A stretch of DNA of 59,294 nucleotides, filler included, from Squatina squatina (lineage: Eukaryota), in NCBI GenBank assembly GCA_031763465.1. It is 3 parts of 3 records of this genome, joined end to end, with 100 filler letters (N's around TTAATTAATTAA, not from the genome) between each part and the next. Parts side by side here need not be neighbours in the genome. Positions count along the whole stretch, not along the records: positions 46,676 to 59,294 come from JARFOE010000046.1; 2 more parts are not named here. One strand, written 5' to 3'. Below, piece by piece: positions 10,703-59,294 of the stretch. The number at the start of each line of letters is the position of its first letter. Position 1 is the stretch's first letter. The notes beneath the pieces were generated by a model. That model was not told the DNA's origin, ran no database searches, and was given only the letters and a program-made list of their open reading frames with translations. Position numbers and translations under genes: made by a program.

Positions 10703-10823
10703 GCCACTCCGTCCACCATGGCTGCAGTGTGTGCCATCTACAGGATGCACTGCGGCAACTCACCACAGCTTCAATAGCATCTTCCAAACCCGCGACCTCT
10801 ACCACCGAGGAAGACAAGACAGC
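10703..10823 (+). mobile_element. LINE (CR1/L2 group) ORF2 C-terminal fragment
   Basis: Decayed reading AVCAIYRMHCGNS...HLPNPRPLPPRKTR, resembling a recurrent fish/shark LINE C-terminus (from recall). Runs into a gap. Confidence 0.5.
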
Positions 10824-26662: not shown

Positions 26663-27112
26663 ATAAGAACATAAGAAATAGGAACAGGAATAAGTCATTG
26701 GGCCCCTCAAGCCTGCTCTGCCATTCAATGAGATCATGGCTGATCTGATTCTGGCCTCAACTCCACTTTCCTGCCAGTTCCCCATAACCTTTGACTCCCT
26801 TGCTGATCAAAAATCTGTCTATCTCAGTCTGATTCATCCTCCACAGCTCTCTGGGGTAAAGAATTCCAAATATTCACAACCTTCTGAGAGAAGAAATTCC
26901 TCCTCATCTCTATCTTAAATGGCCGACCCATTACTCTGAGACTATGCTCCCTAGTTCTAGATTTCCCCATGAGGGGAAACATCCTCTCAGCATTTACCCT
27001 GTCAAGGCCCCTCAGAATCTTTTATGTTTCAATAAGATCACCTCTCATTCTTCTAAACTCCAATGAGTATAGGCCCCACCTGCTCAATCTTTTTATCATA
27101 AGACAACCCTTC
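26662..27112 (-). mobile_element. CR1 3' end
   Basis: The cataagaacataagaa tail reads (TTCTTATG)n on the minus strand. Same family as 5025 and 47585. Confidence 0.9.
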
Positions 27113-27114
27113 CA

Positions 27115-27712
27115 CTATTTTGAACAAGGGTGGAACATTTGCAATCGTCTAGTTCTCTGACATCACTCCTATATCCAAGGAGGATTGAAAGATTGTGACC
27201 AGAACCTCTGCTATTTCCACTGCCACTTCCCTTAGCAACCTAGGACGCAGCTCATCCAGTGACTTTTCTACTTTCAGTGCTGTCAGCCTTTTAAGTACCT
27301 GCATTTTAGCTATTTTTATCCTATCCAATTTCTCTATTCCCTCCTCCTTTACTGTGACATTAACAGCATCATCTTTTGTGAAGACAGATGCAAAATACTC
27401 ATTCAGTACCTCAGCCATGCCCTCTGTCTCCACAAGAAGATTTCCTTTTTGGTCTCTAATTGGCCTCACCCTTCCTTTGACTACCCTTTTAGTATTTATG
27501 TGTTTATAACAGAATTTAGTTTTCCTTTTCATGTTATCCGCTAATCTTATCTCTTGACCCCTCTTATTTCCTTTTTCAGTTCTCCTCTGCACTTTCTGTT
27601 TCAGCTTGATTTACTGTTTTACAACCTGATATTTATCATAAACTCCTTTTTCTGTTTAATGTTAATCTCAGTTTCTTTAATCATTCAGGGAGCTCTAGCT
27701 TTGGGTGCCCTT
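27115..27712 (-). mobile_element. CR1 ORF2 internal fragment
   Basis: ORF 27149-27592: RLADNMK..TKFCYKHIN...GMAEVLNEYFASVFTK...LKVEKS...PRLLREVAVEIAEVL. Confidence 0.92.
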
Positions 27713-28911: not shown

Positions 28912-30105
28912 TCATGTTACCGAGTTCAGGGCACGCACAGCGCTCACATTACCTACATCAGAGACAGCACAGCGCTCACATTCGCGCGTTCAGAGAACAC
29001 ACAGCGCTCGCATTACCGAGTTCAGAGAACGCACAGCGCTCATGTTACCGAGTTCAGAGAATGCACAGCGCTCACATTACCTACATCAGAGACAGCACAG
29101 CGCTCAAATTACCGCGTTCAGAGAACACACAGCGCTCGCATTACCGAGTTCAGAGAATGCCCAGCGCTCGCATTACCGAGATCAGAGAACGCACAGCCTC
29201 GCATTACGAAGTTCAGAGAACGCACAGCCTCACATTACGAAGTTCAGAGAACGCACAGCGCTCATATTACCAAGTTCAGAGAACGCACATCACTCACATT
29301 ACTGAGTTCGAGAACGCACAGTGCTCACATTACTGAGTTCACAGAATGCACAGCGGTCACATTGCCGAGTTCAGAGAATGCATAGCGCTCACATTACCAA
29401 TTTCAGAGAACACACAGAGCTCACTTTAGCGAGTTCAGAGAACACAGAGTGCTCACATTACTGAGTTCACAGAATGCACAGCGCTCACATTACAACGTTC
29501 AGAGAACGCACAGCACTGACAGTACTGAGTTCAGAGAACGCACAGCGCTCACAATAGCAAATTCAGGGAAAACACGGCGCTCACATTGCTGAGTTCAGAG
29601 AACGCACGGCGCTCACATTGCCAAACTCAGAGAACGCACAGCGCTCACATTGCCAAACTCAGAGAACGCAGATCGCGCACATTACTGAGTTCAGAGAACA
29701 CACTGCCCTGAGATTACCGAGTTCAGAGAACCCTCAGCGCCCACATTACCGAGTTCAGAGTACACGCATTGCTCACACTTCCGGGTTCGGAGCATGAACA
29801 GCGCTAACATTGCTGATATCAGAGAACGCACAGCACTCACTTTACTGAGTTCAGAGAACGTATAGCACTCACATTACTGAGATCAGGGAACGCACAGCAC
29901 TCACATTACTGAGATCAGGGAACGCACAGCGCTCACATTGCCAAACTCAGAGTACACACAGCGCTCACATTACCGAGTTCAGAGAACGCACAGCGCTCAC
30001 ATTGCCGAGTTCAGAGAAAGCACAGCACTCACATTACCGAGTTCAGAGAACGCACAGCGCTCACAATACCAAGCTCAGAGAATGCGCAGCACTTACAATA
30101 CCAAG
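28912..30105. repeat. 32-bp minisatellite, about 37 units, bounded by gaps
   Basis: Consensus ACCGAGTTCAGAGAACGCACAGCGCTCACATT repeated head to tail with no spacers. Confidence 0.97.
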
Positions 30106-30853: not shown

Positions 30854-31245
30854 TCACGAAATCTTTTTTAAAAATTCACAGACAAAGTATATGGTGAGGT
30901 GGCACTCCACATCATTCCAACCTCCGTCACTTACCATTTCTACACAGTCCTCACCACCAAACGCATTGTTGGGTTCTCCTGGTCTCCAATGGCTGTAATT
31001 CTNNNNNNNNNNNNNNNNNNNNNNCATGAATTGCCTTTCCTTTTCTAAGTCATTCACCCCAATGAACACTCGAGATAAGCCAGTCTTGTTCACATAGGCA
31101 GCAATCAGCGTGTTTGTCTCTTCGTCCTTTGGCATCGCCAGTGATCCTCCTCTGTCTTTGCAGTGCACAAGAGCAGCATTGTAATTCTTCCCTTCTTTCA
31201 CAATCAGGTAGAATTTCTCCTCTGTCTCTTTGATGCCTGCTATAA
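30854..31245 (-). CDS. COLEC10: Collectin-10 (CL-L1) terminal exon, C-type lectin CRD
   Basis: Acceptor tttattcttttacag|TTATAGCA (phase 1) and 392 nt to TGA. Peptide [18 protein letters not shown]...[14 protein letters not shown]...[12 protein letters not shown]...[39 protein letters not shown], with four CRD cysteines plus EPN and WND. It lies next to MAL2, as human COLEC10 does. 22 N fall inside the exon. The N-terminal ~66 aa of the listed ORF are intronic. Confidence 0.92.
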
Positions 31246-43752: not shown

Positions 43753-44946
43753 AGAGTGTATGAGAAGAGAATAGTGGCTAACATAAAAGGGAACCCAAAA
43801 GTTTTTTTTTTATAAACATATAAATAGTAAAAAGGTCTTCAAAAGGAAGGGTGGGTTCAATTAGGGACCAAAAAGGTCTTCTTGTGAAGGAAGAGGACAT
43901 GGCTGAGTACTTAATGAGCACTTTGCACCGGTTTTCACTAGAGAAGATGAGGCTGCCAATGGAGTAGTAAAGGAGGAGGCAGTAGCAATGATGGATAGAA
44001 TTAAAATAGATAAACAGGAGATACTTAAAAGGGTAACAGTACTCAAAGTAGAAAAGCCACCTGATTCGGATGGGATGCATCCTAGGTTAGAGGAAAGCAA
44101 GGGTGGAAATTGCAGAGGCTTTGGCCACAATCTTCCAATCCTCCTTGGATATGGCCAGAGGCCTGGAGGATTGCAAATGTTACACCTCTGTTCAAAAGAG
44201 GAATAAACCCAGCAATTACAGGCCAGTCGGTCTAACGGTGGTAGTGGGGAAACCGAGTCAATAATCCAGGATAAACTTAATTGGCACTTGCAAAAGTATA
44301 GGCTAATAAATCAAAGCCAGCATGGATTTGTTAAAGGCAAATCATGGTTGACTAACTTGAACGAGTTCTTTGATGAAGTAACAGAAATGGTTGATGAGGG
44401 TAGTGTAGTTGGTGTGTTTATGGACTTTCAAAAGGTGTTTGACAAAGTACCACAAATTAGACTGATTAGCAAAATTAAAGCGGAGGGAAGTATACAGTAG
44501 TGATCCCCAGGGGTCAGTATTAGGAGCACTATTTTTTTTGATGTATATTAATGACCTGGACTTGGGTATACAGGACATAATTTTAAAGTTTGCTTAGGAA
44601 ACAATGAGAAGGATAGTAACAGACTTCAGGAGGATAGACTAGACAAGACGGGCTGGTAAAATGGGCAAGCACATGAAATTTAATGCTGAGAAGTATGAAG
44701 TGATGCATTATGGTAGGAAGAATGAGGCAAGGCAATATTAACTAAATGGCACAATTTCAATGGGAATGCAGAAAAAGTTCAGAAGACTGTTAAAAAAAGA
44801 CATGGGATCCTTGGCTTTATTATTAGAGGCTTAGAACACAAAAGCAAGGAAGTTTGCCAAATCAATATAAAACACTGGTTAGGCCTCAGCTGGAGTATGG
44901 TGTTTAATTCTGGGCACTACACTTTAGGAAGGATGTTAAGGCCTTC
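43753..44946 (+). mobile_element. CR1 ORF2, decayed with internal deletions
   Basis: Reads RIVANIKGNPKVF..., SQHGFVKGKSWLTNLNEFFDEVT...MDFQKVFDKVP and PQGSVLGALFFLMYINDL. Confidence 0.93.
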
Positions 44947-45548
44947 NNNNNNNNNNNNNNNNNNNNNNNNNNNNNNNNNNNNNNNNNNNNNNNNNNNNNN
45001 NNNNNNNNNNNNNNNNNNNNNNNNNNNNNNNNNNNNNNNNNNNNNNGCACAAGAACCAATTTGTAATTCAAAAAATGAATCAAAAATCGATCCATGCTTG
45101 CTGACACTGTAGGAGGAATATTAGAGTTGCCCTTGGAGACAACTCTTCTGACTCCTTCCTTTTCTCCTCAGTGATGAGACACCTTGGCCAACTCTTGGTC
45201 CCTCCCTATTTTGTGTGGCTGAGATCAGAACCTCAGAAGAGTTTCACCTACTTGTCATGATTAATTTATATTTGGGTGGCATATTAAGTGGTGAGAAAAA
45301 TATGTAAACAAAACATGAAGTAACAGTGAAAAGAAAATAGGAAAATAATTCTTGTCAATGTCTGTGCAAATTTTCTCCCTCCCTACTTGAAGGAGTTGAC
45401 CCTTTAGAGGATACATTACCTCAGATGATGCTCAGCCTTCAATACTTTGCAAGGTGCCTATTATGTGTGAGGTGTGAGCCTTGACGATAAATGTTGGCAA
45501 GATATTTGCTTTCAAGAGATGTCACAGCCAAATACAATCCCATCCCGT

Positions 45549-46575
45549 GAAGTAACAGAGTATTGATGAAGGCAGTTCAGTTGATATGTATATGGTCTTT
45601 CAAAAGGTGCTTGATAAAGTACCACATAATAGACCTGTTGGCAAAATTGAAGCCTGTGGAATTAAAGGGGCAGTGGCTGTGTGGATACAAAATTGGCTAG
45701 GGGACATGGAGCAGAGAGTAGTGGTGAACAATGTTTTTCACACTGGAGGCAAGTATACAGTGATATCCCCCACAGGTTGGTGTTGGGACCACTGCTCTTT
45801 TTGATGTATATTAATGACCTGCACTTGGGTTTACAATGCATAATATCAAAGTTTGCAGATGACACAAAACTCCAAAATATAGTAAATAGTGACGAGGATT
45901 GTAACAGATGTCAGGAGGACAAAGACAGATTGGTGAAATGGGCAAAGACATGGCAGCTGAAATTTGGCGCAGAGATGTGTGAAGTGATACATTTTGGTAG
46001 GAAGAATGAGGAGAGGCAATATAAACCAGATGGTACAATTTTAAAGGGGATGAAAGGACAGAGAAACTTGGGGGTGTATGTCCACAAAACTTTGAAGATG
46101 GCCAGGACAAGTTGAAAAGACTGTTAAGAAAGCATATGGGATCATTGACTTTATAAATAGAGGCATAGAGTACAAAAGTGAGGAAGTTATGCTGAACCTT
46201 TATAAAACACTGGTTAGGCTGGAATATTGTGGCCAATTCTGGGCACCACACTTTAGGATGGATGTCAAGGCCTTAAAGAAGGTGTAGAGGAGATTTGCTA
46301 GAATGGTACCAAGGATAAAAGACTTCTGTTACGTGGAGGGACTAGAGAAACTAGGGTTGTTCTCCCTGGAGCAGGGAAAGTTATAGGGAGATTTGATAAG
46401 GGGTGTTCAAAATCATGAAGGGTTTTGATAGACTAAATAAGAGGAAACTCTTTCCAGTGGCATAAGGGTTGGTAACCAGAGGACACAGGTTTAAGGGAAC
46501 TGGCAAAAGAGCCAGAAGGGAGATGTGGAAAACAAATTACGCAGCTAGTTGTTGTGATCTGGAATGCACTGCCTG
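45549..46575 (+). mobile_element. CR1 RT to C-terminus, decayed
   Basis: Reads FQKVLDKVPHNR and VLGPLLFLMYINDL...ISKFADDTKL...CEVIHFGRKN. Confidence 0.95.
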
Positions 46576-46675: not shown

Positions 46676-47351
46676 AAGACTATGAGGTCCAACTACAGTT
46701 CTTGGAAATCCTGTTCCGTACTTCGTCTCATTTATTTTCAAGTGCCAGGAATGACTGATCTAGGAAAACACTGCTATACCCACAGGCACCAGATGCATGT
46801 TTTTAAAACCACAATGGTTCAGATTATTTTCTGCCATTTTTCAGAAGTTTCAAGGGATGTGATCTTTTGCTCTTTTCACACATTCACAACCTCTCTCATT
46901 CATCTGGCCACCGACAGAATTGGCTGTTGTTCTATTGTTCATCTCAAGTGCTCACAATCTGTAAACCCGTGACAGCTGGAGATTGTACAGTTTAGAGGTC
47001 AGACATTGTGCTATTGTACCAGCACTGGCTGCCGCACTTCAATTATCCATGGTTTGACCTTGCTTTGATTTTACTACACTGCTCCAATTTTCTCCCCCTT
47101 CTCCTGGCGTTGCTGACTCATGCTAGAATATGGTTCACGGGTGCCAGGGAAATACAATGGCCCGCCCTTGTCGCTATTCTTCATGTATGAGCATTTACAG
47201 TGACTGTTTGCAGGTATATTACCATGGGGGCCATCACAGCTGAGCCTTATCCTATCCTCACTTGATATTCACACATATTCAAACAGGCATCAGACAGTGA
47301 TCAGGAATGGGAATCCTTGGCTGATATTTGTCAGCGGTGTCATGGCGTCAC

Positions 47352-47585
47352 CCGTGCCTCATTTGGTAACACTCTCGCCTGTGAGGTCAGAAGGTCATGG
47401 GTTTAAGTCCCATCCTGGAGACTGGAGCACAAAATCTACGCTGACACTCCAGTGCAGCACTGAGGGAGCGCTGCACTGTCGGAGGTGCCGTCTTTCAGAT
47501 AGGACGTTAAGTCAAGGCCCCGTCTGCCCTCTCAGGTGGATGTAAAAGATCCCATGACACTATTTCGAAGAAGGGCAGGGGAGTT
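47352..47585 (+). mobile_element. tRNA-headed DeuSINE (SacSINE1-like), 5' half
   Basis: A-box-like TGCCTCATTTGG (47355-47366), B-box-like GGTTTAAGTCCC (47400-47411), then gctgacactccagtgcagcactgagggagcgctgcactgtcggaggtgccgtctttc. It ends where a CR1 tail begins. Confidence 0.8.
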
Positions 47586-48200
47586 AGAACAGGAGTAGGC
47601 CATTTGGCCCCTCGAGCCTGCTCCACCATTGAACAAGATCATGGCTGATCTTCTACCTCAACACCATTTTCCTGCACTATCCCCATATCCCTTGATGCCA
47701 TTAATATCTAGAAATCTATCAATCTCTGTCTTGAATATACTCAATGACTGAACCTCCACACCCCTCTGGGGTAGAGAATTCCAAAGATTCACCACCCTCT
47801 GAGTGAAGAAATTTCTCCTCATCTCAGTGCGAGATGGGCTACCCCTTATTCTGAGACTGTGTCCCCTGGTTCTCAACACTCACTCCCAGCCAGGGGAAAA
47901 ATCCTCTCTGCATCTACCCTGTCGAGCCCTGTAAGAACTTTGTATGTTTCAATGAGATCACCTCTCATTCTTCTAAACTCTGGAGAATACAGGCCTAAGG
48001 TGTGGTGCCCAGAACTGCTCACAGTGCTCCAGGTGTGGTGCCCAGAACTGCTCACAGTGCTCCAGGTGTAGTCAACCAGGGCTTTGTACAGCTGCAGCAT
48101 AACTTTTACCCGCTTGTAATCGAGTCCTCTCGATGTAAAGGCCAGCATTCCATCAGACTTTTTGATTATTTTCTGTACCTGTTCATGACATTTTACTGAT
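47585..48200 (-). mobile_element. CR1 3' end plus upstream ORF2 piece containing a 33-bp tandem duplication
   Basis: Reads RMRGDLIETYKVLTGLDRVDAERIFPL and RTRGHSLRIRG...RRNFFTQRVVNLWNSLPQ. AGGTGTGGTGCCCAGAACTGCTCACAGTGCTCC occurs twice at 47998-48063. Confidence 0.93.
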
Positions 48201-48207
48201 CTGTAAC

Positions 48208-48345
48208 TAACCCATGCTGTACCTGTCCTGGGAGTGTTTGCTGGGATAGTGCAGAGGGAGCTTTACTCTATCTAACCCGTGCTGTACCTGCTCTGGGAGT
48301 GTTTGCTGGGATAGTGCAGAGGGAGCTTTACTCTATCTAACCCGT
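48208..48345. repeat. 65-bp tandem repeat, more than 2 units, running into a gap
   Basis: TAACCCGTGCTGTACCTG...GAGGGAGCTTTACTCTATC units start at 48208, 48273 and 48338. Confidence 0.9.
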
Positions 48346-49428
48346 NNNNNNNNNNNNNNNNNNNNNNNNNNNNNNNNNNNNNNNNNNNNNNNNNNNNNNN
48401 NNNNNNNNNNNNNNNNNNNNNNNNNNNNNNNNNNNNNNNNNNNNNATATTAAAGTGAAAGGTTTGGACCATCTGACTTCATCAGGTGCTGCACATTAACA
48501 GTAAAATCAATCGCGCCCACCCACTGATGATGTACCATTTTGTAAACTCTCTCTGCTGCAGATCCCGATAGTTGCTGCCGTAGCAGTTCCGCAGCACTGT
48601 GACTCCCCCTCTCCACCTCAAGTCGAGTGGCCATTCTGTGTGCGTGCGCAACAGCAGGCCATTCTACCAGGGGAGGCAGCGGCCAATCAGCCTCCTGCTG
48701 GATGCCCTGGCTCGCGATCGTGGGGGGGGTGGGGGGAGGGCAGAAAGCCTGACTGATCATTTGTTTACCCTTTCTCGCGCCTGGTTAACGCCAGCGGTAA
48801 CTGTAGGTCACAGCACGGGCCAGGAATGGAGACGGAGATCCTCCTGGTCAGAGTGGCTCACCGTCAGCCGGTATGTTTAATGACTTAAAGGGGCAAAGCG
48901 GATGATGCATTAAGTCAAGGTAGCAGGAATACTTACTGCTTACTGTCACCAATAATATCGACACTTAATGTGTTTGCAGTTATCATTCAATACCAATTTA
49001 ATGGAATTAGACTCGTCGACACGCCATTAAAGTTTCACTGTTACAGCAACGTCAATTCTTTGCAGCACTCCTTCATCCTCAAGAAAATTCCCTAACATTC
49101 CATTCCATTGACTTATCTTCGCAATACTCCCCTGCAGCCCAGATATTTGTACAATGACCTCCTGCTGACCCAACAAATGAAGTTTACTCTTTAGTGGCAG
49201 TCTTCACTGTTGAGCTAAAACAGTCAAAACTTTGATCTACTCTCCACCCCTTCTCCCCCCTCCCCACGCTATGGTTTTCAGGTAGGGAGTGAGTCACTGT
49301 ACTTGTGTAAAGAGATGCTGCAACTTTTATGGGGTTTGTCGTACACACAGCTCGTTCAAAGAGACATACATTACCAGGTGTACCATTTGTTTTGCTGGAG
49401 ACTAGCACCTGACGATTCTCATTCTCAC

Positions 49429-49553
49429 CAGCAGGGGCCACTGCTGTTCACATCTTCAGTCTGGGCTAGCCCTCTATCAGCTGCTGCTGAGCATCCAGAA
49501 TAGAAACATCACTTACCTGTGAGAGAAAGAGGGAGAGAGAGAGAAAAAGAAAA
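49429..49553 (-). promoter_or_regulatory. Candidate recursive splice site with 88-nt RS-exon
   Basis: On the minus strand, about 33 nt of pure pyrimidines, ACAG (CAG 49517-49519), GTAAGT immediately after (49511-49516), and a downstream donor CTG|GTGAGA (49423-49428). Confidence 0.6.
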
Positions 49554-52500
49554 CACACACATTTTAAAACATTAACAGTTACACAGAATCATCAAAAACT
49601 ACCTTTGGACTGCCTACTGAGCGGCACTATCTTAGAGGNNNNNNNNNNNNNNNNNNNNNNNNNNNNNNNNNNNNNNNNNNNNNNNNNNNNNNNNNNNNNN
49701 NNNNNNNNNNNNNNNNNNNNNNNNNNNNNNNNNNNNNNGAACCTGAAGAGAAAGTTTGGTCGAACTCATCTGACAAGCATCTAGTCACCAGCAAAAGCCA
49801 ACGGCACAGTTAGGAAGATCAGTCACTGGAAAAGCAGTTTTTAAAAAAGATATAAACTGGAAGAAAATAACAGCTGACTCTGCTTTTAAGAATCTTTTTA
49901 AACATCAAGCGGGAGAGACTGACTTCACAAATTACTACAGTTTTAGCGATCCAGCTGGGGAAACGCTCATCCCCGCTTTCTGCAGCATAAATATTTAATA
50001 CGTGTTCTATCATCTTTATAATTCATTAGTTGAGCTCGCCACTATGAATTGTACACAAGCAGCAGGATGCTACTAATATACTGCAATTGGCCAAAGTAAT
50101 TAAACTGTTTTTAAAGAGTCGCTGCATGCAGTTACAATACTTAAAAATATATATATATCGCGAACAATGACACCCAAAGTAAAATGACACATGATCTTGG
50201 ACTGTGCATACTGGAGCCAAGCAGGATTTAAAGTGCTCCACGCACCACTGCAGGCACTGCCTTTACTAACAATTATAGATTTCTAAAAGTACTGTGGAAA
50301 AAGGGCTGCAGCAAGGCACTCTGGTTATGTCATTCTATTTTTTCACTCCCTCATTTCCCCCCCTCCCGCCGGCCCTTCCTTCATACACTACCTTCTGTGT
50401 AGCAGCTGGACGAGAAGATGGTACTGGGAGGTCTGAAGATGTAAGGCAGGTACCGAGAGAAGCATTTCATCTTCCCAAAAAGAAAATAAGTAAGCGAAGC
50501 CTCTTCAGTCCACGTGAATGGTACTTTTCATTCTCCCCTAGGCAAGGCGCAGGTTTAGGCTTTCACAGCTCGGGTGGGCTGCTGGGGCTGTGCACTGGTC
50601 ATGACTCGGTGTGTACAGTTTTACCATGCTTGCCTCTTCAGACACCAGGGCACAGAGCCTCGCATTTCGGTGGGAATGCTGTACAAGTCCCAAGGCACCA
50701 GGATGCTTAAACCATTGGCCGTTGTCCGCCAGATCAGGAAGTGCTGACTAAGGGGCACTATACAACATTCCAAGCAATGCTGCTAAAACTCACTCCTATG
50801 TCACAAGAACTGCAAGTTAGTAGCAGCCAAGTCAATATTTAGCCTTTCTGAATCCAACTGAATAAAAATGTAGCAGAATCAAATTTTTTTTTAAAAAATG
50901 ACTACACCAAAAGCTTTAATCTTCAGGCAAACGTAAAGTTAAAAAAAAACCTTTAAAAACAATTCACTGTCTGGAACCCTAGTCGTTTGTACGCAGTATA
51001 ATCGAGACGCTTATAGCCATCTCCCTTCTCCAATTTCAAACCACGCAGTCTGCAAATCTTGCTGAAGCCTGCTCCCATTAATCTAAGCAGTCACGTTAGA
51101 GGCTGTACAGTGGGAGAACCTTGCAACCAATTACCAGCACCTTACGTAGCAACAGTGTTAAAAAAAAGCAATACTGCTCTGGTCACAGCAGTGCCAGCAT
51201 TCACTCTTCAACACCCCGCCCCGAGAAGCAAAATTTCAACCAGTATCCTGGTTTTAAAGATTACCTCGACGACAACAACTTGCATTTATATAGCATATNN
51301 NNNNNNNNNNNNNNNNNNNNNNNNNNNNNNNNNNNNNNNNNNNNNNNNNNNNNNNNNNNNNNNNNNNNNNNNNNNNNNNNNNNNNNNNNNNNNNNNNNTT
51401 TAGCCCACAGCAAAAGCAAAGGGCTTAGATAAATCTGAAGTGCATGAAACAACTCAGAGAGCTGATTTTGTGAAGGGCTGTTGTACAGTTACTCCCTTGG
51501 GGAAATAATTTATTCTTTCCAAGATGCACAGTCATTGTCACACATTGAACTGCCAAACTACAAAAAGATTGCCACCCCTCATCTTACAGAAGGCACAATA
51601 ATGGTCTTGGGCATTATAACCACTGAAACCTTAAGGTTTTATAGCCCTCAACTGCAGTCAAAAACCATGTATTGCCGCCGCTGCTTTTACAGTAAGAATC
51701 TACAAAGTGTACATAAAACTGCACACTGTTTCTTAGGTTAACAGTTAAGGTCAGCAGCTCACTACCACACAACCTAGAGTTCAGTCAGCATGTAAAACAC
51801 ATAGCAGTACAGAAATACACATAACCTGTAGCTGTGTAAACTAAGCACCTTATTTCCTCTTACAACCTATCATTGCACAGGTTCAAGGGACCCTGTCAAG
51901 GGAGTCTGGTGTTGACAGTTAGACGCATGTTCAACCTCCTATTATTATTATTATTTTTTTTTAAGAACACGAACACTTTTGTTTTATGCAACCAATGACA
52001 TTTGTAAACAAGCAATTAGCTAGCGCAGCAGCAACAATTACACATCAGTGCTACGATTGTAAAATTTGCATGCAAAAAAAGTCTTTCATGATTTTATGAA
52101 CAAACTGGGATGGGTGGTGGGGGTGGGGGGAGAAGGGGCTTTTAATAATTTGTATGCAATGCTGCCATTCAAAAGGTTACAGCTCTACATGGCACGGAGG
52201 AAATCCGCTCACACAAACGCTCTCCTGTTTTAGCCAGCACCATCAGGGAGGAGGCAGAAGTTGTCACTGTATTACATTACATTTCATATTCGTCTTGTGG
52301 AGTGGGTGGGGGAAATACAATAGGTTTACCTTCTGACACATCCTCGTCAATAGTTCCTTTAACCTGAGAGAAACACCACTGCATTTCGTTTGNNNNNNNN
52401 NNNNNNNNNNNNNNNNNNNNNNNNNNNNNNNNNNNNNNNNNNNNNNNNNNNNNNNNNNNNNNNNNNNNNNNNNNNNNNNNNNNNNNNNNNNNTCAAGCCT

Positions 52501-53145
52501 GCCCTGTCCAGATATACTTTACCCTATCGTGGACTGTCCCCCACTTATTTAATTACTGCAGAGAAAGGTCTACATAAATACCACTTCCCAAAATGAATGA
52601 GGCAAAATTCTGGAATATCTATCCTCCCTCAAATCTCCATCATGCAGTTTTTACCAATTTTCTTCCAGGCGCCAGTCTGCTAACCTAGTTGCTGTGCTGG
52701 GGACGAGCTTCAGTAGGTCAGGATGTCCTTTCTTGTACATGACTTTTCTCAGTGACTTATATAAAGTGAGAAGAATAGTCAACATTGGAAATCCATACTT
52801 TGTGTTCTTTTCTTGCGGAAAGATCTTCAATTAGTGTTAAACACACAAGGTCCGGGCTGATTGTGTTCAGTTTAAATATTTGCTGGTCCTATTATTTTTA
52901 TGTTAGTGTACAACTGAGACGAGATAAGTCATAGTCTCGGTTTTCAACAGCATCATTGAGCAACACTTAATGAAACGATCAAGAGGATTTGTACCATAAT
53001 GATGAAAACACTGAGGAAATTTAAATTTGTTCAATTGTATGAAGANNNNNNNNNNNNNNNNNNNNNNNNNNNNNNNNNNNNNNNNNNNNNNNNNNNNNNN
53101 NNNNNNNNNNNNNNNNNNNNNNNNNNNNNNNNNNNNNNNNNNNNN

Positions 53146-53305
53146 ACAGTATTGTTACTAATTTGGTTAGCCCAATCTATGTGTAGATTAAAGTCACCCA
53201 TGATTACAGCTGTACCCTTATTACACCTGTCTCTAATTTCCTGTTTGTTCCCATCCCCCTGCCATTTTAGTTTAAACCCTCCCCAACAGCACTAGCAAAC
53301 ACTCC
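53146..53305 (-). mobile_element. CR1 ORF1-end/endonuclease fragment (internally deleted)
   Basis: gccattttagtttaaaccctcccc matches 14692-14715, and the minus strand reads AVIMGDFNLHIDW (APE GDFN motif). Confidence 0.8.
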
Positions 53306-54802
53306 CCCTCATAACACTCCTGTGAAGTGTCTTGGGTCGTTTTAATATCTTAAATACAAGTTGTTGTTGTTATATGTTTAAATAAGATGTAATTCAACTG
53401 TAATAAAAAAAAACTTAGTTTCCTTCTCTGTTATCAAATTCCTAAGCTCAGCAAAGACTTCTGCCAGATCCAGCCCTGTGGTGCCTTCAATTGTTAAATC
53501 CAAGTAAATGTTGTCTTTTGCAACTTGAACTGTTCAGATGTCTGTGCTTAGTACCTTCCGAGTGTGCGTTGTCCCGTGTACAACCCAATATGGTTGAATG
53601 ATACTTAGTGATGTGCTGTAACTTGCAGTTACAAATGTGATATTAGCTGAATCAGTAAAATTTAAATAACTTAACCTAGGGAGTGATTTTTCTATCAATT
53701 TAAATGCAATTCGAGTATTCTGGCATAATGGAATTAAACTCGGCTGAGTTCCACTTGAACAAGAGAGTTGTTGGAGTTTAGCACAAAAAGATCATTCACA
53801 CTGCTACACAGAGCTACATTTGTTTCATCCAAGTACTGCATAATAGTTAACTCATGCTCAAGCACAGCTGTCCAGTAATAATATTCTTCCCCTGCCAGCC
53901 TCTGCTTGAAATATATAGAAATCCTTAGGTTCTTATATTATAATTATGCTTTAAGAATGCTCTGAGATTGTTACGTCCTATACAGTCGCTACATGGGTAA
54001 TAGGGATGCTTTGCTTAGATACATAACCAAAGAGGTTGGACAATGTACTACAGTCTACTCTTACTTCTAATTCACTCAATTCAAATGATCTGATTTTGAT
54101 GCAAAAATTCTTTAGCTCCAAATTCCGACTTCCCTATGTTATTCATGTCTCTAGATAATTCAAATGCTTTTTCATGCAAAGGTGACATTGAATTATCAGT
54201 AGGTTGCACATGGAGTGTTATAAAGCAAAGAATGGCTCTACAACTTATAGTCACCATGCCGTTTCTGCATTAATATGCCTCTTAAATGATGCACATACAC
54301 ACTGCAGTGCTAATAATTCCCATTTACTCTCGCTTATTCCATTGCCATGTACTCTGAATGAGCTATGGTACTATTTTGAACGTTAATTATGCCATGACAG
54401 GTGAACAGTGTTTGCAGTGTAAAGGTTATTGCTAGCTGACAGGATTACAACAAAATCTAGCTGTGGGGATTAGAATAAAGCAACCATCTACAGCTAACAT
54501 TTCCTAGTTTCAAAGTAGCCTACAATGGAGAATTAGCACTGTGACTTTGTTATGCACAGGAGAATCAAACCTATATCACTTAATTAGGATCTTGCTAGAT
54601 TAGGTAAAACTCTGTTGTATAAACAATCACTTCTGTACCAGGAAATCTGAATGTTACAGAAAGTGGGCCTCCATTACGTATCTCTAATGATGAGTTAAAT
54701 CAGAAGGAACGTAGCCCAGATGTAAATAATGCTGTTTCTAATCATGAACCCTGTATCCCACTTTTTGACCAAATGCAGTGTCTATAGGCCTGCTCCCATA
54801 AT

Positions 54803-54935
54803 CAGATGCTTCTAAAGAGTGCAGATTGGGAAATCATGGTCCTGCAGCCTATGATTTCCCACCTATTAATTTTAATAGGTAGAAAATCAGTCGGTGGGCC
54901 TGCGATTTCCTGATCTGCACCCCGTGGGAGCACTG
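54803..54935. repeat. Imperfect palindrome of about 130 bp (old hairpin MITE)
   Basis: Outer arms gtgcagattgggaaatc / gatttcctgatctgcac and inner arms acctattaa / ttaataggt. Confidence 0.7.
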
Positions 54936-55299
54936 CTCTGTGCTGAGAATGCTTGATTGCAGAATCAGCCCTTATATTCAGTTTCTGAAATTAGATCAGT
55001 GCAACAACCCTCTTCTTCCACATTCTGACTCACATTACTTGTGGTTTGGCTGAGCTGATCTCTCAAAAAACCTTTCTTGGGTTTCTTGACTTTTGGCTTT
55101 TGCTGTTCTATACAAGTATATTCACCTGCAGAGTTTTTTTTCTCCAATATTCCCTCCGATTATCACCCCTTTCTGCCTTGTAGGCAGTGATACATGCCAN
55201 NNNNNNNNNNNNNNNNNNNNNNNNNNNNNNNNNNNNNNNNNNNNNNNNNNNNNNNNNNNNNNNNNNNNNNNNNNNNNNNNNNNNNNNNNNNNNNNNNNN

Positions 55300-55790
55300 A
55301 GAAAGCCACATTCAGTGAGGGAAAGAAAGATGGGATAAAAAGAGACATAAAAGAGAAAGACAGAAATAAAGTTTAAAAAAAAATTCACCACTTTTTGTAA
55401 ATCTCCAACAATAATTCAATTTTGAAGGAATGAAACTCCACATTTCTAAAATTAAATTTTCAGCGAGGTTGTTTGGCAGTAATTAAGATTTATCATGCTG
55501 TTAAAAATTCACTTACACTTGAATGCACCAGTCCTAACTTTTGCTGGTGTGTTCAGTGGATCACTAATGGGTAAGTACAGCAACTTCACACCCTTACATG
55601 GATTGTAATGCCAAGTCTATCGATAAGGTAGAGTAGTTCATGGAGGAGTAGGGCAAATCGAACAGCAACTACTTGCTTTCCATGTTGAATTGTGTGTGTG
55701 CTGACTCTGGAAGTTGCTGTCTGGTTTACTGTGTAATAAGGGTCAGTGCTAATAGCCTCACCGTTTTTCCTATTGCAAATTCCGGGCCAT
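55300..55790. mobile_element. MITE-like element related to 21962-22674, inverted
   Basis: Shares cagcaact...ggaagttgctgtc and ends in gcaaattccgggccat. Confidence 0.5.
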
Positions 55791-57355
55791 TGTGAAGTAG
55801 GAACTAAGCTTTAAAACTTTCATTTGATTCATGAAAGAGTATAATGACTTAGTCATAAAATGCTGATTACCTGTATTATAGTCACACTGTCCAACATACT
55901 GTTTTGGTTTTTGCCTCAACCAGTGCATTTAGTACTACCTCTTGAATTCAGCTATTTTTTCCAATTATAAGCATAAGACTGAAATATGTCTTTGAAATAT
56001 GTTTCAGTCATTTGCTTCCTGCTTCACTACCTGACCACTGCTTTCGAGATTATTTTTCTATGTTTGTATTGTCAAGCACTTGTTTTTAAATACTGCAGTT
56101 TATCTTTTTATACTATTTGCATTTTTAGCATCTGCCTTGATGGGGACTCAAGGACTTGCCAGTTCTTGTCACATGCCCCAGCCTTCATGCCCCAGCAGCT
56201 CTCTCAGCCCAATTACCTAATTCTCTTGGCTGCTAGTTTACTTTCAGTGACCTCACCGCTCCCACTGCCTGCTTACACTTGAGGGCTTGCCAACACAGGT
56301 GAAGGGGTAAAATGGAAAAGTAAAGGACGAGGAGTGCAAAACGGGTTGGTGATTTGCTCTTGCCCGTTTTCCGCTGTCGCCAAAGATCATTTCCAACTCC
56401 TAACACTTTTACAATATAAATTATAATCAGCGAAAATGAAACTCGATTATTTTTTATCTGTAGGCTTTTTATTTTATACTTTTCTGTTACAAATTTCATA
56501 AATTGTACATAATTCAGTCACCAAGAAAATGCAAACATCAGTTAAAAAGGCCGAAGGTGTCACCTTCAGTGATGGTCGCCAGTGGACCACAAGCCAACCT
56601 CAGAATCATGAAGGCTCGAAGGCATTCCAAACAATAGTTTACATTTTGATAGAAGCTTGACTCCCAAAAAGTATTAGCGACTTTCCCCAATGACTCAGTG
56701 GTTNNNNNNNNNNNNNNNNNNNNNNNNNNNNNNNNNNNNNNNNNNNNNNNNNNNNNNNNNNNNNNNNNNNNNNNNNNNNNNNNNNNNNNNNNNNNNNNNN
56801 NNNTGGTCAGTGTTAGGGGTATGCAACCTGTACAATTGCACAGTCGGCTCCGCATAGGGGGGACCGTGAAATTGCAATCACTGGGCCCCAGTTGGACTCA
56901 GTTCCGAAGCCAAACCTTTGTGCGGAGGGGCCCTCACAAGGCAAACTCCAACAGGCAAACAGCACCCACACTCACAGCAGGAGCAGAACAAATTAAGTAT
57001 CCCCACTTTTCACTGCAGGATAATATACCTTTAGTACCAATTTACACCTCTGTAAATGATTTGTGCTGACAACAGGCCCCGGGACTCACAGCCTTCTCCT
57101 CGCACTTGGTAATATTTTTGGAGCAGTTCTGTTCAAGCAGAATGCCACTGTTTTCACTGTATGTTTTCCTGCCACTGAATTATGGGCTGTTTCTTTTACA
57201 GGGAGACAGGATCAAAAGGAGCTTTTTAAATAAATCAATATCAACTGATTCAAATCCAGCCTCCTCCTAAAATGTCCAGGACACAAATCGAATGATGCAA
57301 AACGGCTGTGCAATTGGGAATTTGATGCATTGGTGAACTGAAAGGCACAGTTAGT

Positions 57356-57520
57356 GGCTGGGATTCCCTTTCGGATTCTCTGGCGGGAGATCAGCGGATC
57401 CTCCAGCGAAATGGCGCCAACCCCTAAAGATGGCCGTTGATGTGCGTCCCTGGCAGTTCAGCTTCTCTCCCGCCAAAGTTCTGGTGACAGGTCAGGAGCA
57501 TCCAATGGAAAATCGAGGCC
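57356..57520. mobile_element. Short GC-rich palindromic MITE
   Basis: Ends GGCTGGGATTCCC / GGAAAATCGAGGCC, with an internal inverted pair tggcgggaga / tctcccgcca. Confidence 0.55.
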
Positions 57521-58305
57521 AATATCTGCAGCTGCTTTAAGTCTATAAACTCCGTTCATTTTTCCAGGTCACGAAAAGATTGAACGGTTTATACTACTGA
57601 TTAATAAGCTGTGACAGTAAATAACCTTTTTCATTACAATTTAGAACTTATTTTTATGTAATATATATTTGTGTGTATATAATATATGTACACCTACAAG
57701 AAGCCAAACACAATTGGATAGAAATTGAAGTCTTGGTTTATAAGAGTCCTTTCAAACTGTCATGATCCCATTGATATGGGATTGCCAGTATTCCATGAAT
57801 AATGTCACCACCCCATACTGTTTTCCTGAGCTTCAGAAAGTCAGCCTGTTAAATTAGCCCTTGACAGAATGTTGAGACAAATTGTTCTGTGGTAATGAGT
57901 GTATTCATTTCTAGTTTGCTGCTTTGCACCTGTTCACAGACCAAAATAGACCTGTACAATATCAAAAGCAGTTAGTGTAACATGAGAACTTGGTACTTAA
58001 CTGTTCCCAGTAACACCTGATCCTCTTAACCTGCTTGAACAGGGGATCTCTTTTCTCCAAGCTACTGCTCTTCAGCTTTTGGTTGGTAATTATTGATGAC
58101 TTCTGAAAATACCGAGGGCTGATTCAGATTTAGAGTCAAATGTTTAACGGCAAATGTGTCTTTTTGTCTTCACAGTAACACACTACATTCAGCAGTGCCG
58201 TGAATATTAAAATCGCACACTGCAGAGTTAGCCACACAAGAAAGAGACAAAACATAATCGTGCAGAATAATTAAAACAGTCACTGCAACATCACGTTGTT
58301 GTTTT

Positions 58306-58499
58306 GGGAACATTGAACGGGAGTCGGCCATTCAGCCCCTCGAGCCTGTTCCACCATTCAATTAGATCGTGGCTGATCTGTATCTAAACTCCATCCACCC
58401 GCCTTGGTTCATAGAAACATAGACATAGAAGATAGGAGCAGGAGTAGGCCATTCGGCCCTTCGAGCCTGCTCCGCCATTCAATGAGATCATGGCTGATC
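58306..58499 (-). mobile_element. Two stacked CR1 3' tails
   Basis: ggccattc(a/g)gccc.tcgagcctg.tcc.ccattcaat.agatc.tggctgatc occurs twice. The second copy is preceded by catagaaacatagacatagaa. Confidence 0.85.
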
Positions 58500-58599
58500 N
58501 NNNNNNNNNNNNNNNNNNNNNNNNNNNNNNNNNNNNNNNNNNNNNNNNNNNNNNNNNNNNNNNNNNNNNNNNNNNNNNNNNNNNNNNNNNNNNNNNNNN

Positions 58600-59113
58600 A
58601 CCATATACAGCACATCATGCAGCTCAATGCTCAGTATCCTGGCAGCAGCCATGATGCTTTCATTCTGCGGCAGTCCACTGTGCCATCTGTATTTGATCCA
58701 CCATGACAAACCAGAGGGTGGCTACTGGGCGACAAGGGCTATCCACTGACCACCTGGCTCATGACTCCAGTGCGCAACCCATGCACACGTGGGCAGCATG
58801 CAAAAACGCAAGCCATTCTGCCGCACAAAATCTGATGGAACAGACCATTGGCATGTTTAAACAATGCTTCCGCTGCCTGGACCCCTCTGGATGATCCTTG
58901 CAGAACTCACCAGTGCACGTCTCAAGATATGTCATGGTCCGCTGCATGCTCCACAACCTCGCCATCATGAGGCCTCAGCCCTTGCCAGCATGTTTATGGC
59001 AAAGAGCTGAGGGGGAAGAGCTGGAGGAGGAAGAGGAAGGGAGGAGGCAACCAACACAGCCTCTATTTGGCCAGTCTGTCTGTGATCGACTCATTCGACA
59101 GCTGCACCAGTGA
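58600..59113 (+). mobile_element. PIF/Harbinger DDE transposase (HARBI1-like) C-terminal half, pseudogenised
   Basis: [58 protein letters not shown] and an acidic tail, with in-frame stops and a frameshift. Confidence 0.95.
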
Positions 59114-59294
59114 ATGTAACCCCAATTCCCCGTTCACCAACAGTCCCACACCTTACCTTCGCTCTGTCACTGACCATCACAGTGTCCTCTTGGCCACAAT
59201 GCAAAAATAAAAGCCACCAAAAACAAAGACTCCAAACTAAATGTTATAAATCAAACCATCCAATACTACACACCAAAGTCAACTAAATCACCCT

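Follow-up and report, generated by a model that had tools for sequence, protein, structure and literature searches.

We have found a candidate recursive-splicing (RS) site on the minus strand of 59,294 nucleotides (nt) of Squatina squatina DNA (assembly GCA_031763465.1; referred to here as the window), a stretch made of parts of three records joined end to end, in which positions 46,676-59,294, including the site, come from JARFOE010000046.1. At this site an uninterrupted pyrimidine tract and a CAG acceptor stand directly before GTAAGT, so that splicing to the acceptor would regenerate a strong 5' splice site, and a further donor closes a potential exon of 88 nt. The sequence suggests that this is a real splice module in this shark, that it is probably functional and that it is likely located in COLEC10, the collectin-10 gene. 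The single most likely reading, to which we nevertheless give somewhat less than an even chance and all of whose RNA steps we infer, is that the module is a cryptic RS-exon in a minus-strand transcript, probably that of COLEC10.

A tandem acceptor and donor at 49516

The signals that make up the site are collected in Table 1. The original prediction had named a TTAAT, the tract, CAG/GTAAGT (a slash marks the exon-intron or intron-exon junction) and donors at +88 and +142 on the minus strand, and every one of them is where it was said to be; it had also recognised an RS-type layout, which the signals, their scores and conservation in one homologue support. RS sites are recognised by a strong tract with a YAG directly before GTAAGT, as found at 49516, and RS-exons by a downstream donor at no more than 350 nt, here CTG/GTGAGA at +88. 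Scored with an approximate matrix and five different upstream triplets, the rebuilt donor reaches 9.9-12.9 bits compared with 9.1 bits for GTGAGA.

Table 1. Features of the candidate site and of the COLEC10 exon (positions in the window)
Feature	Position	Strand	Basis or remark
TTAAT, putative branch point; candidate branch A some 56 nt ahead of the junction	49571..49575	-	sequence; compatible with the homologue P0090
AG-free zone of 80 nt ahead of the acceptor	49519..49598	-	counted in the sequence
Polypyrimidine tract, 33 nt without interruption, rich in CT, following a short TG run	49521..49553	-	sequence
CAG, candidate 3' splice site	49517..49519	-	sequence; junction between 49517 and 49516
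GTAAGT abutting the acceptor, predicted strong 5' splice site once spliced	49511..49516	-	9.9-12.9 bits, five upstream triplets tried
Candidate RS-exon, 88 nt, stop in every frame (3/3)	49429..49516	-	sequence, homologue P0090
Second donor CTG/GTGAGA, exon end, GT at 49428 (+88)	49423..49431	-	9.1 bits
Third, weaker donor CTG/GTAATG, GT at 49374 (+142)	49369..49377	-	5.9 bits; 2 positions differ in P0090
Conserved block, reaching from the branch region to some 30 nt beyond the second donor	49396..49592		45/61 codons match P0090 vs 28/69 outside
COLEC10 last exon, coding part, C-type lectin domain	30854..31245	-	Pfam Lectin_C; 86-91% identical to shark/ray collectin-10

If the site is used recursively, the tract and the downstream GTGAGA donor would together define the 88-nt exon, the upstream exon would then be joined to the CAG, and the joint would create an NNN/GTAAGT donor that is predicted to be stronger than GTGAGA. 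The rebuilt donor would be used next, and the exon would leave with the rest of the intron and without a trace in the mRNA; occasional use of GTGAGA would lead to inclusion of a stop-bearing exon. In mammals, re-splicing and exon loss are favoured when the rebuilt donor is the stronger of the two (PMC6224609, PMC8797253, PMC5126111). It is because the rebuilt donor outscores GTGAGA, the order that favours skipping in mammals, that we prefer to read the 88-nt segment as a cryptic RS-exon. In the window the exon has stops at nt 49 and 67 in one frame, at nt 2, 38, 41 and 59 in another and at nt 6 in the third, which makes it poison-like, and with its 88 nt it would shift the frame upon inclusion, as had been proposed. 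The accompanying remark that one frame is open was mistaken, since all three frames stop and the peptide quoted for it joins two of them; no frame runs open through the exon in the window, as a coding exon would need.

The site stands out within the window. Its tract is the most pyrimidine-rich (24/24) among 3610 YAG sites, and its acceptor-donor overlap scores 19.7 bits, with the runner-up among 401 AGGT sites at 7.6 bits. The pattern Y16-N-YAG-GTRAGT, allowing up to two mismatches, occurs once in the window and was seen in 5 of 100 shuffles. The AG-free zone of 80 nt compares with a median of 32.5 nt for 70 good acceptors, five of which have a zone of at least 79 nt, and of 71 good acceptors only three are followed within 30-250 nt by a donor of at least 9.0 bits. 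We estimate that 0.0004-0.008 such sites would be expected by chance per window (about 0.04-0.8%). The surrounding DNA had been described as non-repetitive, which holds to the extent that a comparison of the window with itself reveals no second copy of the site region.

Partial conservation of the site in a homologue, and its likely host gene

Evidence for conservation comes from a protein search. The phmmer query was a spurious plus-strand open reading frame (ORF) over the exon, and it had one match among 1.84 billion proteins, P0090, which is itself spurious, being the antisense translation of unspliced homologous DNA in one 2203-bp Logan contig. P0090 aligns to 49190-49616, frameshifts included, and the distal flank and the tract region of the alignment each outscore 60 of 60 controls. 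Codons of the exon match P0090 at 23 of 29 positions, compared with 20 of 49 in the distal flank (Fisher p 9e-4), which corresponds to an estimated divergence of approximately 0.11 and 0.34, respectively, and codons outside the query frame match at 24 of 35 positions (p 0.011 against the same flank). The 3' half of the exon matches at 13 of 15 codons. Conservation drops beyond the branch region (2/8 codons) and more than about 30 nt past the second donor, and the conserved block, whose limits (49396-49592) were set after the data had been seen and part of which was the search query, thus has the extent of an exon-definition unit.

All nine of the signal positions that are forced by the residues of P0090 are kept (chance 0.02-0.13 at a divergence of 0.34-0.2). 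At the acceptor the C and the A are forced, and the G falls on a wobble position that the residues do not fix; in GTAAGT the G, the T and the A at +4 are forced, +5 allows a G, and +3 and +6 are wobble positions. Four positions of the second donor are forced to be identical and the remainder are compatible. The tract is 12 nt shorter in the homologue, where of the 24 bases that precede the CA no fewer than 16 are forced pyrimidines, and TTAAT fits the residues. At the bases that can be resolved, and in this one homologue, the block of predicted splice signals is partly conserved. The exon would be 86 nt long in the homologue and is 88 nt in the window, a 2-nt difference that argues against selection on a reading frame.

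We note that two lesser signals are not shared with P0090. A second branch candidate next to TTAAT, the TAAC at 49581-49578, is changed there and was set aside, as was the third donor, CTG/GTAATG, which is also changed and is probably incidental. On the plus strand a weaker, mirror-image site (49240-49377) consists of a tract, CAG/GTAGGG at 49282, a 96-nt open frame and a weak donor; it yielded no Pfam match and sits in an indel relative to P0090. There were no further homologues among proteins of 30-115 residues, and P0090 was the sole homologue in a search of 567 candidates. The gap at 49639-49738 is not spanned by P0090, since 29 of 60 controls do equally well there, and the seven matches to an 18-nt junction piece in a metagenome scan were all chance matches, with flank similarity in none of the seven.

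The site had been attributed to an unidentified long gene, which our analysis does not support. The sole cellular gene we find in the window is COLEC10, which in humans is approximately 39 kb long, has six exons and is expressed mainly in the liver (PMC4339841), and of which the last exon is present. This exon 6 has no differences over 121 unmasked residues from collectin-10 of Pristiophorus japonicus and is two residues away from that of Heptranchias perlo, in keeping with an origin from a shark, likely a squalomorph. The site is on the same strand, 18.3 kb of assembled DNA upstream of exon 6, with ten assembly gaps in between. Throughout the window the assembly is fragmented (31 gaps of 100 N, with a median piece of about 1.6 kb); the site occupies a 1193-nt piece (48446-49638), and the 28 kb upstream of exon 6 (31246-59294) contains 17 gaps of 100 N. 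COLEC10 exons 1-5 have probably been lost in these assembly gaps. A partial whale shark protein encoded by a 9,318-bp contig consists of exons 5 and 6, and human exon 5 is about 2 kb from exon 6 (PMC4339841), which together suggest that exon 5 was probably lost in one of the ten gaps. COLEC10 is the likely host gene, and the site is probably located in one of its earlier introns, ahead of the neck exon, or else 5' of the coding part.

Recursive splicing and other explanations

RS-exons have been described in vertebrate genes that include CADM2, HS6ST3, ANK3, CADM1 and LSAMP (Sibley 2015 via PMC5126111, PMC6224609, PMC8797253, bioRxiv 2025.08.14.666599). The Squatina site resembles the cryptic RS sites of vertebrates in its strong tract, its AG/GTAAGT, its weaker downstream donor, its short stop-bearing exon and, in the one homologue, its conservation above that of the flanks. 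While the vertebrate sites have proof at the RNA level, in the form of junction reads, saw-tooth coverage or lariats, the Squatina site is known from its sequence, and on the strength of its layout we regard it as a candidate, not a proven, member of the class. An exon is a putative RS-exon whenever a donor is regenerated where it joins the upstream exon (Blazquez 2018, PMC6224609), and in this respect the 88-nt exon, which would do so, is also like the expressed RS-exons held in place by the exon junction complex (EJC). Those exons, however, are annotated and mostly included (PMC6224609), whereas the 88-nt exon has stops in all frames and a near-perfect rebuilt donor and is absent from the COLEC10 proteins tested. 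The tandem acceptor and donor, the short out-of-frame cryptic exon and the presence of a donor within 100 nt are features shared with the ratchet points of Drosophila (PMC8605326).

Several observations weigh against recursive use of the site. Known RS sites lie in first or second introns of more than 51 kb in brain genes of more than 294 kb, as reported for brain-expressed genes of the mouse (PMC8797253), whereas the likely host here is COLEC10, which in humans is unlike those long brain genes; the longest gap between the listed exon single-nucleotide polymorphisms (SNPs) of human COLEC10 is about 22 kb (PMC4339841). Work on lariats, on the other hand, indicates that recursion also takes place in shorter introns (PMC10156609). 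Neither tblastn with 15 and 52 proteins nor five exon profiles (best E 0.4) detected COLEC10 exons 1-5 in the window. The bodies of cryptic RS-exons in flies are poorly conserved (PMC8605326), whereas in the Squatina block conservation is highest in the exon body. The conservation was read from one contig by way of a spurious protein, was partly selected by the search itself and leaves the acceptor G and positions +3 and +6 on wobble positions, and the homologue has one sense frame without a possible stop over 28 codons (chance 0.24). Our splice scores come from approximate weight matrices based on textbook values and not from MaxEntScan. Finally, the site is exceptional locally, yet a multi-Gb genome holds some such sites by chance: we expect about 7-140 per Gb, a number that falls to 0.5-10 per Gb once a good second donor is also demanded. 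A transposon remnant in the window provides an equally strong minus-strand acceptor at 59020, without the GT, together with a 10.5-bit donor at +110, and so such pairs of acceptor and donor can arise by accident. This remnant (58600-59110) is a broken DDE_Tnp_4 transposase, presumably Harbinger-like, whose match is below the curated cut-off and whose Glu-rich tail makes the acceptor.

Much of the evidence for a cryptic RS-exon would serve equally well for an exon that begins with GTAAGT, is closed by GTGAGA and is included in a 5' untranslated region (UTR), a long non-coding RNA (lncRNA) or a poison isoform under the protection of the EJC. The acceptor, the donor and the conservation are the same, conservation peaks in the exon body, and shark COLEC10 isoforms have several differing N-terminal extensions, that is, alternative upstream exons. 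Furthermore, expressed RS-exons are far commoner in vertebrates (more than 6,400 possible cases compared with nine fully cryptic ones in mammals; PMC8605326), and 46 of 84 mouse candidates proved to be unannotated exons (PMC8797253). Inclusion is not what the donor scores predict, though, and the site region is unmatched in all 52 cartilaginous-fish COLEC10 proteins, among which non-coding and decay-bound forms (and UTRs) would be invisible; we consider an included exon unlikely. A further suggestion is that the segment codes for protein, as an exon (phase 0 to 2) that belongs to an unrecognised gene or isoform and has had its frame broken in Squatina by an assembly error or a real mutation. 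Here it is sense frame 0 of the homologue, the frame without a possible stop, that is of interest, since 23 of its 28 codons allow the residue found in the window and since its wobble position coincides with that of the antisense frame of P0090, such that coding constraint could mimic the conservation signal. Set against this are the closed frame in the window, the chance of 0.24 given above for an open frame of that length, the reach of the conservation into the tract and the branch region, and the lack of a Pfam or PDB match to the 27-residue open piece. Entry into COLEC10 exon 6 is in phase 1, in which the 88-nt exon stops at once, so that a gene other than COLEC10 would be needed, but no other coding exon was found in the 59 kb. 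A coding exon therefore seems to us quite improbable.

It is also conceivable that the block is conserved for some other reason (for example as an enhancer-like element), or only mildly so, and that a CT microsatellite lying beside GTAAGT happens to produce the splice layout, which is silent or silenced by repressors of the PTBP type. The chance sites expected genome-wide, a type of host gene unlike the known RS hosts and the extra 12 nt of tract relative to the homologue, as a microsatellite would produce, are all in keeping with such an accident. The tract also supplies the CU repeats upstream of a 3' splice site that mark cryptic exons repressed by PTBP1/2, but those exons are described as non-conserved (PMC5959245), whereas the Squatina block peaks in conservation in its sole homologue. 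A CTCF-like motif that differs from the consensus by one mismatch overlaps the 3' end of the exon but is without a core G in both species. Since conservation spans the branch region through to the donor, with none of the forced signal positions lost, we do not expect this explanation to prove correct. Least credible of all is that an untranslated exon upstream, rich in CT, has CAG/GTAAGT as its ordinary donor and that the 88-nt segment is a conserved intron start. The site as it stands is a perfect donor (12.9 bits), and the alternative upstream exons of shark COLEC10 could accommodate it; however, the 33-nt pyrimidine run, the 80-nt AG-free zone and the second donor would all become coincidences, and for COLEC10 five other exons would have to hide in gaps within 18 kb of assembled DNA.

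If the module is a cryptic RS-exon after all, it would extend recursive splicing to cartilaginous fish and to a class of short, liver-expressed gene for which fully cryptic sites have not been described. The mechanism is already known, and the gain would be in evolutionary range and in a testable site rather than in a new kind of system. We searched the full-text literature and found no link between recursive splicing and COLEC10 and, for sharks, a general review only; COLEC10 is absent from the supplements of RS papers that we searched. One could go further and propose that the recursive splice site is conserved across distant sharks or rays in COLEC10, a modest-size gene of innate immunity and craniofacial development, and that competition between the donors acts as an on/off switch for collectin-10 output; it would then be the first site of its kind in a cartilaginous fish, and one that lies outside giant brain genes. 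Judged by the sequences at hand this stronger proposal is doubtful.

Other features of the site, COLEC10 and the window

Two other roles for the site region were considered and rejected. A CTCF site is weakly indicated, given the core-G mismatch, and there are two one-mismatch sites in the window, one on the plus strand from 49428 (region 49415-49428) and one on the minus strand at 10744. A structured RNA is not indicated by folding, which is not stabilised (198 of 200 shuffles fold equally well). Rfam yielded no matches in the window and none at E 1 in the contig of P0090, no tRNA was found in the window, and short open pieces had no match in Pfam or PDB.

COLEC10 exon 6 itself contains an internal perfect donor, ATG/GTAAGT, on the minus strand at 30929-30937. 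Some cartilaginous-fish isoforms diverge right after it (P0092 and P0097, with P0014 diverging one residue later), which suggests that it is used, or has been predicted, as a donor. Models of collectin-10 from Narcine bancroftii (P0001, P0002, P0092, P0094 and P0095) have a long, unrelated N-terminal extension that may be a piece of a retroelement Gag. A 32-bp minisatellite (28917-30102) with 37 copies and 80% matches begins some 750 nt beyond the stop codon of COLEC10. Elsewhere in the window there are LINE-like retrotransposon fragments at 44207-46272, 47587-48262 and 26682-27610, with one weak RVT_1 match, and tandem duplications of 65 bp (48207-48345) and 33 bp (47998-48069).

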